Part shown: in pieces, positions 45,816 to 47,851 of the stretch
Position numbering within the stretch: position 1 is the first letter of the stretch
Layout of the letters: the number at the start of each line of letters is the position of its first letter
Virus record (IMG/VR): IMGVR_UViG_3300028048_000053
Span: 34,692 to 98,691 of that record
Length of the DNA stretch: 64,000 bases
Strand: one strand, 5' to 3'
Source: a virus
Made by a program: the position numbers and the translations under genes
Notes under the pieces: generated by a model
The model's database searches: none
Seen by the model: the letters and a program-made list of their open reading frames with translations, nothing else
Told to the model about the DNA's origin: nothing

Positions 45816-46667
45816 TTGACTGTTCAACAGAATGGCAATATTACAATTGCTGAAATACCAAAAGATGAAATTGAAAGAATTGATTTTGTATAGTGCGCTT
45901 AGCCCACGCAAACTTTAGAATAGTTTAAGGCTTCACAAGAAAATAAACCGGATTTAATTATTAATGGTGGATTTTTTGATTTGGCTTCTGGCAATTCTGT
46001 TATGGATTATATAAATGATGAAAAAATTATTTCTGATGACCCCTAGTGGAACTCTCTTGGGATCGGTATAGACCTATATGGCAAGCTTAGGATTGGAACA
46101 TAGTCGGAAAGAGCATGGAAAGATTTTATTACTGCATATCCAATGCTTTTAAATAAAGGCGTATTTTATTATACTCCAATAGCAAGTGAACTAAATTATA
46201 GAGCTAGAAGAAGTATAATTGGATATAATGAGCTTTCGGTATTTTTTATTACAATAGATTCTCCAGGAGCAAACTTTAAGGAGGCCGCTAATATAGCTAG
46301 GTAGGCTGGCTGTGAGTATGCTGTTAATCTAGATGGCGGCGGAAGTACTCGTATGATTTGCGGCGACAGGGTATATGCGGCCGCAAGCTATAATAGACCA
46401 GTTGACAATGTAATAGCGGTATACCGCAAAGTGGCTGAGCCAGTTATTTATAGGGTTCAATTAGGAGCTTTTTCCAACAAGGAAAATGCCCAATCCTTTT
46501 GTGAAGAGGTTAAAAAAGTGGGCGGATTTGCTTCTTTCGCTTTTGTCGTATTCAAAGACCCTTATTATAAAGTTTAGGTTGGTGCTTTTAAAATTAAGCA
46601 AAACGCTCAGGTGGCGGTCAAAGAGTTAAGAGAAAAAGGTTTTAATGCCTTTATTACCGTGGGATAA
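45816..46667 (+). CDS. cell-wall hydrolase-like protein with two C-terminal SPOR repeats (7 in-frame TAG)
   Basis: TTG 45816 after GGAGG; VNLDGGGST motif; YRVQLGAFSNKENAQSFCEEVKK and YKVQVGAFKIKQNAQVAVKELREKGF SPOR repeats; ends TAA 46665-46667. Confidence 0.55.
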
Positions 46668-46679
46668 AGGAGAATGTTT

Positions 46680-47555
46680 ATGAAATATAACGAAAATAAA
46701 AAACCATTAGTTTGCATGATGACATAGAGTACTTGTTTTAAATCAACCAGAGATATGGAAATAAAAGGAATTCTTTGGCACTCTACCGGAGCCAACAATC
46801 CTAGATTATCAAGATATGTTCAGCCAGATGATAACGCATCCAATAGGGCAGAATTAATCAGTATTTTAGGTAGAAATACAAACAATTCCGATTGGAACCA
46901 TATCCAAGTATAGGCAGGAGTTAATGCTTGGATTGGGTTGACTGCGGCCGGCGATGTGGAGACAGTACAAACTATGCCATGGAGTTTTAGACCTTGGGGA
47001 TGCAGCAGCGGAAAGAATGGAAGCTGCAATAATGGGTGGATTTAGTTTGAAATTTGCGAAGACTCCCTGTGGGATAAACTTTACTTTGATAAGATATATA
47101 AAGAAGCCTGTGAATTAACTGCCTATTTGTGTAAAAAGTATAATATTAATCCAATAGGCAAAGTTAATTATAATGGCATTTCAGTACCCACAATTTTATG
47201 CCATGCAGATAGTTATCAACTGGGATTAGGTACAAATCATGCTGATGTATTGCATTGGTTCTCTATTTATGGAAAAACAATGGATTAGGTAAGAGCAGAT
47301 GTCTTGGCCTTGATGACAGAAGAAGAGGAGGAAGAGGAAATGACACAAGAGAAATTTAATGAAATGATGAATGTCTGGATTGAACAGCAGGCAGCAAAAG
47401 ATACAAACGCTTCTTGGTCTGCGGCCGCACGCGAATGGGCTGAATCAAATGGCTTTATTCAAGGTGATGAAAAAGGTCGAAAAATGTATCGTAAACCAAT
47501 AACCCGTGAAGAATTTATTACAGTTCTTTATAGAATTTTAGGTAAAAAGCAATGA
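46680..47555 (+). CDS. N-acetylmuramoyl-L-alanine amidase endolysin with a C-terminal SLH domain (4 in-frame TAG)
   Basis: Amidase_2-like core (WHSTG..., PTILCHADSYQLGLGTNHADVLHWF); C-terminal SWSAAAREWAESNGFIQGD..YRKPITREEFITVLYRIL matches the S-layer-homology pattern. Confidence 0.65.
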
Positions 47556-47851
47556 AAAAGAAGCAAGAGTTTAGTAAAAGACTACTTATACAAGAGTCTT
47601 TTCTAATTTGGATAATTACAATTTCTTATATTGTTCTAGCGTTTATCTGTGTTCTTTTTAATTATACTGGTTCTTTACCTTGGTTAAGTGTGATTCCTGG
47701 AGTTGCTTGGAGCGCATATGGGGTCAGCCAAGGATTCTACTATAATAAGAGCAAAAAAGAAAATACAAGAGATGGAATAAAATTTGAAACAGTAATGACA
47801 GAATTATTAAATGAAAAAGAAGAAAATATAGATTTGGATTATGGTATCTAA
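47552..47851 (+). CDS. holin-like membrane protein
   Basis: ORF track 99 aa, two TM helices, directly after the endolysin with an ATGA overlap. Confidence 0.5.
   Translation: MKKKQEFSKRLLIQESFLIWIITISYIVLAFICVLFNYTGSLPWLSVIPGVAWSAYGVSQGFYYNKSKKENTRDGIKFETVMTELLNEKEENIDLDYGI

Follow-up and report, generated by a model that had tools for sequence, protein, structure and literature searches.

A 64,000-nucleotide (nt) stretch of the IMG/VR virus record IMGVR_UViG_3300028048_000053 (positions 34,692 to 98,691; hereafter, the window) carries at 45816-47851 a compact lysis unit of three plus-strand genes, g1, g2 and g3, located between two terminator-like hairpins. The unit encodes a NAGPA-SPOR protein (g1), an Amidase_2 endolysin whose C-terminal tail belongs to a family clearly related to the S-layer homology (SLH) domain (g2), and a putative holin (g3). 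This agrees in outline with the first-pass annotation of the window, which had assigned an SPOR enzyme, an endolysin and a holin to the same three open reading frames (ORFs). In our view, these genes are likely to form the late lysis unit of a ~172-kb gut phage that reads TAG as glutamine (Gln) and whose host is most likely a monoderm member of the Clostridia, probably of the Oscillospirales.

Anatomy of the lysis cassette

The window corresponds to ~34.7-98.7 kb of a 171,985-bp ENA metagenome contig (ERZ27252073 k141_3465). ORF analysis of the window yields three consecutive plus-strand ORFs at 45816-47851 once TAG is read through; under the standard code, the region at 45.8-47.9 kb breaks into many short ORFs. 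The genes and the boundaries of the cassette are as follows.

45763..45789, plus strand: terminator-like hairpin between PhoH2 and g1, with a 12-bp stem and a T-rich tail; upstream boundary of the cassette
45816..46667, plus strand: g1, NAGPA-SPOR protein of 283 amino acids (aa); TTG start after GGAGG; seven in-frame TAGs
46680..47555, plus strand: g2, endolysin of 291 aa; ribosome-binding site AAGGAG; four TAGs; its stop overlaps the g3 start (ATGA)
47552..47851, plus strand: g3, putative holin of 99 aa; no TAG; two transmembrane (TM) segments
47892..47922, plus strand: terminator-like hairpin with a 13-bp stem (6 GC pairs), followed by TTTTTTGTTTT; downstream boundary of the cassette

From the local base composition, the chance of meeting no TAA or TGA is ~5e-8 over the 283 codons of g1 and ~3e-8 over the 291 codons of g2, and the Pfam matches in both genes continue uninterrupted across the in-frame TAGs; the two frames are therefore not chance occurrences. 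The genes are tightly spaced, with a gap of 12 nt between g1 and g2 and a 4-nt overlap between g2 and g3. PhoH2 (PIN + PhoH) lies upstream of the cassette, and UDG, RNase H and gyrase/topoisomerase lie downstream. The gene order PhoH2, NAGPA-SPOR, amidase, small TM protein, UDG is kept in a syntenic relative at 49% identity, and a megablast search of the 24 kb around the cassette against annotated phages gave no match.

Amber recoding and the suppressor tRNA

TAG accounts for 47% of the Gln-type codons in g1, 31% in g2 and 0% in g3, so the earlier description of all three genes as heavily amber-recoded does not hold for the holin gene. The TAGs occupy codons 26, 29, 36, 77, 96, 163 and 254 of g1 (nt 45891, 45900, 45921, 46044, 46101, 46302 and 46575) and codons 16, 78, 122 and 203 of g2 (nt 46725, 46911, 47043 and 47286). 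TAG use is bimodal across the genes of the window, with a share of 0.36 in PhoH2, 0 in the gyrase, topoisomerase and ligase genes, and 0.36-0.64 in several homing-endonuclease-like ORFs; g1 is among the most recoded genes, and higher values are reached only in a few of these homing-endonuclease-like ORFs.

When the TAG positions of g2 were compared with more than 58 homologous loci that have no in-frame stops and thus use the standard code, Q was dominant at three of the four positions (44/58, 34/62 and, at position 122, 63/64). Within g1, the second SPOR motif reads YKV-TAG-VGAF and the first reads YRVQLGAF, the Q of the second motif being encoded by TAG. On these alignments, TAG is decoded as Gln in this phage. 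Serine, which is hinted at by the shape of the suppressor tRNA, was considered as an alternative and rejected for now, since Q dominates the conserved aligned positions. The candidate decoder of the TAGs lies far upstream of the cassette.

12869..12962, plus strand: amber suppressor tRNA with anticodon CTA (ARAGORN; Rfam tRNA, 53 bits), in a tRNA array 33 kb upstream

This tRNA, which presumably decodes the TAGs of g1 and g2, is 94 nt long and has an extra variable arm of ~20 nt and G73, giving it a class-II (Ser-like) shape; the two tRNA-Gln genes of the phage (10862-11012) are normal in length. The array at 340-14113 contains 16 tRNA genes, all on the plus strand and interspersed with short ORFs, several of which resemble HNH or GIY-YIG homing endonucleases and contain TAGs (e.g. 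6253-7017, 8647-9330 and 14187-14837).

Paralogous ORFs at 17455-18426, 55138-55935, 58506-59435 and 60355-61275, identified by eye, have either CxCDCGN repeats with an EFDGEQH C-terminus or GIY-YIG-like N-termini, and together with g1 they are the most TAG-recoded genes of the window (44-64% of Gln-type codons). Their heavy TAG use echoes the finding of Borges et al. (bioRxiv 10.1101/2021.08.26.457843) that lysis genes and homing endonucleases are preferentially recoded. Among relatives of the cassette, the holin homolog has in-frame stops at the loci L004 (four) and L066 (two), and the counterparts of g1, g2 and g3 at the syntenic locus L077 contain 10, 1 and 0 TAGs.

The endolysin g2 and its SLH-like tail

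The g2 protein is divided into an N-terminal catalytic domain, an acidic linker and a C-terminal tail.

46755..47207, plus strand: Amidase_2 domain (N-acetylmuramoyl-L-alanine amidase; PF01510, 42.2 bits, cutoff 26)
47316..47342, plus strand: acidic linker TEEEEEEEM that joins the amidase domain to the tail; predicted local distance difference test (pLDDT) score <50 at aa 217-220
47340..47552, plus strand: tail module of 71 aa that opens with a conserved extra helix (MTQEKFNEMMNVWIEQQ) and continues with a single divergent SLH-like repeat (core at 47406-47540)

The amidase assignment of the first-pass annotation is borne out by the hidden Markov model (HMM) match to PF01510 and by a match to PHROG 15001 'endolysin' at 3.9e-36; the protein is identical to the database entry P0001. 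The residues H34, E124, H175, H187 and D189 are invariant in 26 homologs, and H34, H175 and D189 are presumably the zinc ligands, by analogy with AmiE. The AlphaFold2 model of g2 (pLDDT 84) gave its best Foldseek matches to AmiA and AmiE (S. aureus, S. epidermidis), PlyP100, PlyL, LytA, PlyG and XlyA (E 7e-7 to 4e-4), and the modeled amidase fold thus matches that of Gram-positive autolysins and endolysins. The search with the whole model was dominated by the amidase domain and is uninformative on the tail.

The C-terminus of g2 had also been proposed to fit the SLH pattern. The proposal falls short in the direct Pfam check that the first-pass annotation had itself named, in which full-length g2 gave no SLH match at E<=1 and the tail alone stayed below the cutoff (see below), and it stands at the level of the family and its profile. 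PF00395 is matched by 13 of 35 tail-family members (best E 4.3e-8), and many g2 homologs at ~63% identity carry a precomputed PF00395 match. When the tail-family profile was searched against PDB sequences, the top six matches were all SLH proteins, with B. anthracis Sap at the top (E 5e-5), and hhalign of the tail family against nine canonical SLH repeats, drawn from Pfam-verified multi-SLH proteins, gave 97.6% probability over 44 columns (E 3.6e-12). The tail contains W246/W253, GFIQG (aa 258-262) and TREE (aa 275-278), in which W, G, T, R and E show little or no variation across the tail family. These are the counterparts of the W, GIIxG and TRAE motifs of the endolysin LysBT1, Sap and SpaA, defined as SLH ligand-binding motifs in the LysBT1 study (PMC12285257). 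Other Pfam families that brush the tail (Ish1, Lsr2_DNA-bd, DUF4214 and Bindin) do so more weakly and less consistently than SLH and were set aside.

AlphaFold2 predicts three helices for the tail (pLDDT 89) in a helix, long loop, helix layout, and the match of this structure to solved SLH structures is not significant. The tail is strongly conserved in hundreds of homologs, where it follows an amidase alone, a lysozyme-like domain (PF18013) plus amidase, or an M15 peptidase plus amidase; some homologs have two tandem tail units, and g2 has a single copy. At L077 (4885-5655; also at L078), the tail is kept (126 bits with the tail HMM) and the synteny is identical, and the catalytic domain belongs to a different Amidase_2 subtype, that of the NAGPA-SPOR-amidase fusions P0142 and P0147. 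The tail has thus been kept while the amidase was exchanged, which makes it an autonomous module and is the behavior expected for a wall-binding domain. Taken together, the profile matches and motifs identify the tail family as clearly SLH-related and the g2 tail as a divergent single SLH-like repeat that is predicted to bind the wall. A ligand in the wall (presumably a secondary cell-wall polymer) follows from such an anchor, whereas an S-layer does not.

The NAGPA-SPOR protein g1

Two domains are recognised in g1.

45954..46424, plus strand: NAGPA catalytic domain, a phosphodiester glycosidase (PF09992, 86.5 bits, cutoff 25; aa 47-203)
46446..46655, plus strand: SPOR domain (PF05036, 56.9 bits, cutoff 21; aa 211-280) with two YxVQ[LV]GAF motifs

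The SPOR domain had been anticipated by the first-pass annotation, and the NAGPA match comes in addition to it. The SPOR domain also matches the RlpA and FtsN C-terminal models. The DGGGS motif of the catalytic domain (aa 173-177, nt 46332-46346) is kept in 116 of 120 homologs; in human NAGPA, a structural study describes DGGGS as strictly invariant and functionally required and shows the GlcNAc-1-P moiety and the catalytic Asp to be held by this loop (PMC13474241, 2026). The g1 sequence contains no signal peptide, and the protein should therefore depend on the holin for its release.

The database places the start of g1 at ATG 46002 (P0121, 221 aa; locus L002, 9323-9988), which would cost the protein 62 N-terminal residues and three TAGs. 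This start was rejected in favor of TTG 45816, because homologs of ~285 aa align over 96-100% of the long form from residue 1 and the Pfam NAGPA match, which begins at aa 47, also fits the long form.

The NAGPA-SPOR family comprises 331 database matches, mostly of ~285 aa, and three members are single-chain NAGPA + SPOR + Amidase_2 fusions (P0142 and P0147 among them). A gut phageome survey has catalogued both NAGPA and SPOR as endolysin domains. A tblastn search of g1 against INPHARED (GenBank phage records) found just two partial matches to the SPOR region, so that g1-type genes are essentially absent from that collection.

The putative holin g3

The g3 protein has a basic N-terminus (net +3), a strong TM1 (aa 17-36), a weaker, Gly/Ser-rich TM2 (~aa 43-63) and a highly charged C-terminal tail (6 K/R, 9 D/E). 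Both TM segments, the basic N-terminus and the charged tail are conserved across the g3 family, and a g3 homolog is located directly downstream of the amidase in 11 other loci, which include the isolates Oscillospiraceae C18_42, 'Clostridiaceae' strain 9, Acutalibacter 1XD8-36 and Colidextribacter OB.20, as well as in L077 and L078. The best PHROG is 17876, of 'unknown function' (E 2e-4), and the best 120 of 868 homolog clusters hold no Pfam domain or informative name. The holin call of the first-pass annotation is thus supported by size, two TM segments and position and receives no backing from Pfam or a named PHROG family; on size, topology and synteny, g3 is a putative holin.

Host

We compared g2 with one genome per species and found 71 relatives, overwhelmingly in Clostridia. 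The tail is included in 23 of them, all labelled Oscillospiraceae, Acutalibacteraceae or broader Clostridia (isolates: Colidextribacter OB.20, Flintibacter muris and Acutalibacter), and none of these 23 comes from Lachnospiraceae, Negativicutes or Bacteroidota. Beside its g2-type copy, Colidextribacter OB.20 has a gene for a secreted SLH + GH25 muramidase, and an Oscillibacter metagenome-assembled genome (MAG) encodes a triple-SLH protein; the group therefore uses canonical SLH anchoring. Our literature search on S-layers or SLH proteins in Oscillospiraceae returned nothing usable.

Evidence from outside the tail points the same way. For the closest annotated phages, the predicted hosts (iPHoP labels) are Evtepia, Oscillospiraceae, Blautia, Faecalimonas and Anaerosphaera, PhoH2 is most similar to that of large siphoviruses of Alicyclobacillus, Geobacillus, Bacillus, Lactococcus and Enterococcus, and the recoded syntenic relatives (148-176-kb contigs) are binned in Oscillospiraceae, Eubacterium and Acutalibacteraceae MAGs. 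The cassette contains no spanin-like gene. A comparison of the window with 72 fetched loci, which does not amount to a real CRISPR search, gave no spacer-like short matches beyond homologous genes.

A Firmicute is the most likely host, in preference to a member of the Bacteroidota. The first-pass annotation had inferred a Gram-positive-type host with an S-layer, of which the Firmicute host is supported and the S-layer is not, the SLH anchor implying a wall ligand only.

One tail-bearing locus calls for separate mention. In Flintibacter muris DSM 110149 (L005), the tail-bearing amidase lies on a 2,680-bp contig with a coverage of 159 and 39% GC, and the Flintibacter genome is, we presume, much more GC-rich. 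Either an extrachromosomal phage fragment or contamination could account for this contig, which is weak host evidence.

Proposed course of lysis

From the domains matched in g1 and g2 and the topology of g3, we infer the following course of events. As a two-TM holin, g3 would build up in the membrane and release the two signal-less enzymes. The endolysin would then dock on the wall via its single SLH-like tail, probably as a trimer bound to a secondary cell-wall polymer, by analogy with LysBT1 and single-SLH proteins, and its zinc amidase domain would cut stem peptides off MurNAc. The peptide-free ('denuded') glycan left by g2 would be the SPOR ligand and would recruit g1; SPOR domains recognise denuded glycans produced by amidases (PMC6895207). 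For the NAGPA-type domain of g1, the predicted reaction is hydrolysis of GlcNAc-1-phosphodiester bonds. As its substrate we propose the murein linkage unit (GlcNAc-1-P-6-MurNAc), through which teichoic acids or secondary wall polymers are attached to peptidoglycan. Cleavage there would shed the polymers and everything SLH-anchored to them.

The timing of lysis may be set by recoding. The TAGs would hold g1 and g2 untranslatable until the suppressor tRNA of the phage is active, and g3, which has no TAG, may be gated indirectly by translational coupling to g2, because its start overlaps the g2 stop (ATGA) and its ribosome-binding site is weak (AGGT).

With low confidence, we put forward g1 as a possible new kind of phage lysis enzyme, guided by SPOR to amidase-stripped glycan, where NAGPA would cut the GlcNAc-1-phosphate linkage unit to MurNAc and shed the polymers. 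If this is so, g1 would strip off the polymer coat and, with it, every surface protein anchored by SLH domains and also the endolysin's own docking site.

Alternative explanations

Several observations speak against parts of this account, and they are weighed here together with the alternatives that they would favor. The tail of g2 alone scores 15.0 bits against PF00395 (E 0.024), below the gathering cutoff of 20.8, and the match is limited to model positions 3-30 of 44. The tail also begins with a highly conserved extra helix that is not found in canonical SLH repeats, it is present in one copy versus three in S-layer proteins, and the SLH domain of LysBT1 is dispensable for lysis, mainly aiding stability and trimerisation (PMC12285257). 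All of this would suit a small helical oligomerisation or regulatory module that merely resembles SLH and says little of the host envelope. We regard such a module as quite unlikely: the hhalign match covers almost the entire SLH unit, the top PDB sequence matches are all SLH proteins, close family members pass the Pfam SLH threshold (best E 4e-8), and the W, GxxxG and TRxE ligand-binding motifs are retained. Moreover, the tail survives the swap of the catalytic domain, as expected for a binding domain, and its bearers are confined to Oscillospirales or broader Clostridia labels, a group that also has canonical SLH proteins. As for g1, several relatives lack the gene, a fused lysozyme-like domain takes its place in L004, the NAGPA-SPOR gene of L075 is solitary and away from the amidase, one homolog is source-labelled 'exopolysaccharide biosynthesis protein', and the literature that we searched holds no experimentally established bacterial or phage NAGPA substrate. 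The protein might then act on another GlcNAc-1-phosphate glycan, such as a capsule or exopolysaccharide, in freeing progeny from debris or in blocking superinfection, or it might serve mainly in SPOR-mediated septum targeting. This role for g1 appears doubtful to us, given that its place in the cassette is conserved at 49% identity, that covalent fusions with Amidase_2 exist, that the gut phageome survey includes a CHAP-NAGPA-SH3_3 endolysin architecture, that the SPOR ligand is the product of the adjacent amidase (PMC6895207), and that g1 is among the most heavily recoded genes of the window (47%), a pattern also reported for lysis genes. Two further points concern the remaining components: g3 belongs to no described holin family (no match in Pfam or NCBIfam), and the class-II-like long arm and G73 of the suppressor tRNA are unexpected for a Gln acceptor.

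On the host side, the phage and its recoded relatives have 29-38% GC versus 40-60% in the tail-bearing isolate and MAG loci, a difference that keeps the host prediction above the rank of genus. Many of the host labels derive from MAG binning, which is weak evidence, or from iPHoP predictions rather than from culture or CRISPR spacers. The tail profile also matches the single-SLH trimeric PDB proteins 8bz2, 8bys and 8bym, which we take to be OmpM-type proteins, and one amidase-only relative is found in a Selenomonadaceae MAG; the host could on these grounds be a diderm Firmicute (Negativicutes), a group in which single SLH domains, that of OmpM among them, bind polyamine-modified peptidoglycan instead of an S-layer polymer. 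This is very improbable, since none of the 23 tail-bearing homologs belongs there (all are Oscillospirales or Clostridia), the cassette has no spanin or other outer-membrane-disrupting gene, and the closest phages and the PhoH2 relatives infect monoderm Firmicutes. A Bacteroidota host with horizontally acquired Firmicutes-like lysis genes would place the phage with the best-known TAG-recoded phages, the crAss-like and Lak phages, and a few amidase-only relatives do occur in MAGs labelled Muribaculaceae, Bacteroidales and Bacteroidetes. These contigs are short or from binned MAGs and none has the tail, whereas Firmicutes are indicated by the SLH-type anchor, the AmiA/AmiE/PlyL-like amidase, the lack of spanins and the phylogenetic neighbourhood of PhoH2, and TAG-recoded Firmicutes phages are already documented; a Bacteroidota host is thus extremely improbable.

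Other features of the window

Downstream of the cassette, gyrB appears to be split at 49378-52483, with a DNA_gyraseB N-terminal ORF at 49378-50697 and a DNA_gyraseB_C ORF at ~51944-52483. The 317-aa ORF between the two halves (50870-51823) has a faint GIY-YIG match, and the arrangement suggests an inserted homing-endonuclease or intron-like element. On the plus strand at 30798-33254, an 818-aa ORF without TAG uses 29 CAG codons versus one CAA and matches, along its entire length and at 39-40% identity, ORFs without annotation in the 'huge phage' records LR756500/LR756501/LR756503 (462 kb, 735 kb). A minus-strand block at 20334-29538 has a higher GC content (up to 0.53), a negative GC skew and large repeat proteins with few TAGs (BspA-like repeats at 20334-21728 and 'NTFGxxCxS' repeats at 28051-29538), and it probably contains tail-fibre or receptor-binding genes.

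Significance and comparison with known systems

The cassette provides an envelope-based host clue for uncultured, amber-recoded gut phages of ~150-180 kb, namely monoderm Clostridia, probably Oscillospirales, with SLH-type anchoring. Its 71-aa module, predicted to bind the wall, could be used to probe or target Oscillospirales that are hard to cultivate. It also adds a case to the idea that lysis is gated by stop-codon recoding, here with both enzymes gated and the holin not. We find the uncharacterised NAGPA-SPOR partner the most interesting part: with 331 matches, including Amidase_2 fusions, NAGPA-SPOR proteins are a widespread and uncharacterised partner of phage amidases. The NAGPA-SPOR protein and the unrecoded holin are modestly new. 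A Firmicutes rather than a Bacteroidota host for recoded clades and the combination of an amidase with a single SLH domain, reported for LysBT1 in 2025, are not new.

The closest known counterpart of g2 is LysBT1, a prophage endolysin of Brevibacillus thermoruber WF146, whose authors state that no SLH-type endolysin had been reported earlier (PMC12285257, 2025); to call SLH-anchored lysins typical of phages of S-layer-bearing hosts, as the first-pass annotation did, was therefore an overstatement, LysBT1 being the first characterised example. Like g2, LysBT1 has an N-terminal Amidase_2 (NALAA) domain, a flexible linker and one C-terminal SLH domain, and its trimerisation via the SLH domain offers a model for how a single SLH copy works (PMC12285257). 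The comparison, which was made with the published description of LysBT1, also reveals differences: the g2 tail is more divergent, lying below the Pfam cutoff, and g2 has an extra conserved tail helix and a poly-Glu linker and is TAG-recoded. The hosts differ as well, a thermophilic member of the Bacillales for LysBT1 versus a gut Clostridia lineage for g2. The canonical SLH domains of B. anthracis Sap (3PYW/6BT4) and P. alvei SpaA (6CWC) show profile homology to the g2 tail over ~44 residues and share with it the TRxE and GxxxG motifs and the predicted helix, long loop, helix layout. However, they occur as three tandem copies instead of one, and the g2 tail sits at the C-terminus of a phage enzyme made in the cytoplasm.

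With regard to coding, Borges et al. (bioRxiv 10.1101/2021.08.26.457843) predicted Firmicutes hosts for several alternatively coded clades and described an Oscillospiraceae genome that contains a TAG-recoded prophage; phAss-1 has likewise been assigned to Clostridia (PMC10607447). The suggestion that the host range of this lineage differs from that of the crAss-like and Lak phages is supported as far as a Firmicutes host is concerned, and it is not novel. The phage resembles these code 15 gut phages in reading TAG as Gln, in having a suppressor tRNA and a predicted Firmicutes host, and in the distribution of recoding, which affects lysis, structural and homing-endonuclease genes and spares DNA-replication genes; its genome of ~150-180 kb also falls in the range of the large recoded clades. 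It differs from them in that the holin has no TAG, though some relatives' homologs carry it.

For g1, the SPOR wall hydrolases E. coli RlpA and B. subtilis CwlC and the Amidase_3-SPOR phage endolysins likewise have a C-terminal SPOR domain on a wall-active enzyme. In g1, however, the catalytic partner is NAGPA instead of an amidase or a lytic transglycosylase, and the amidase comes in trans from the adjacent downstream gene or, in rare fusions, in cis from the same chain. The NAGPA/DUF2233 proteins, comprising the human uncovering enzyme and bacterial DUF2233, share with g1 the Pfam match of 86.5 bits and the DGGGS loop, whereas g1 is found in a phage lysis context and has neither a signal peptide nor an EGF stalk.

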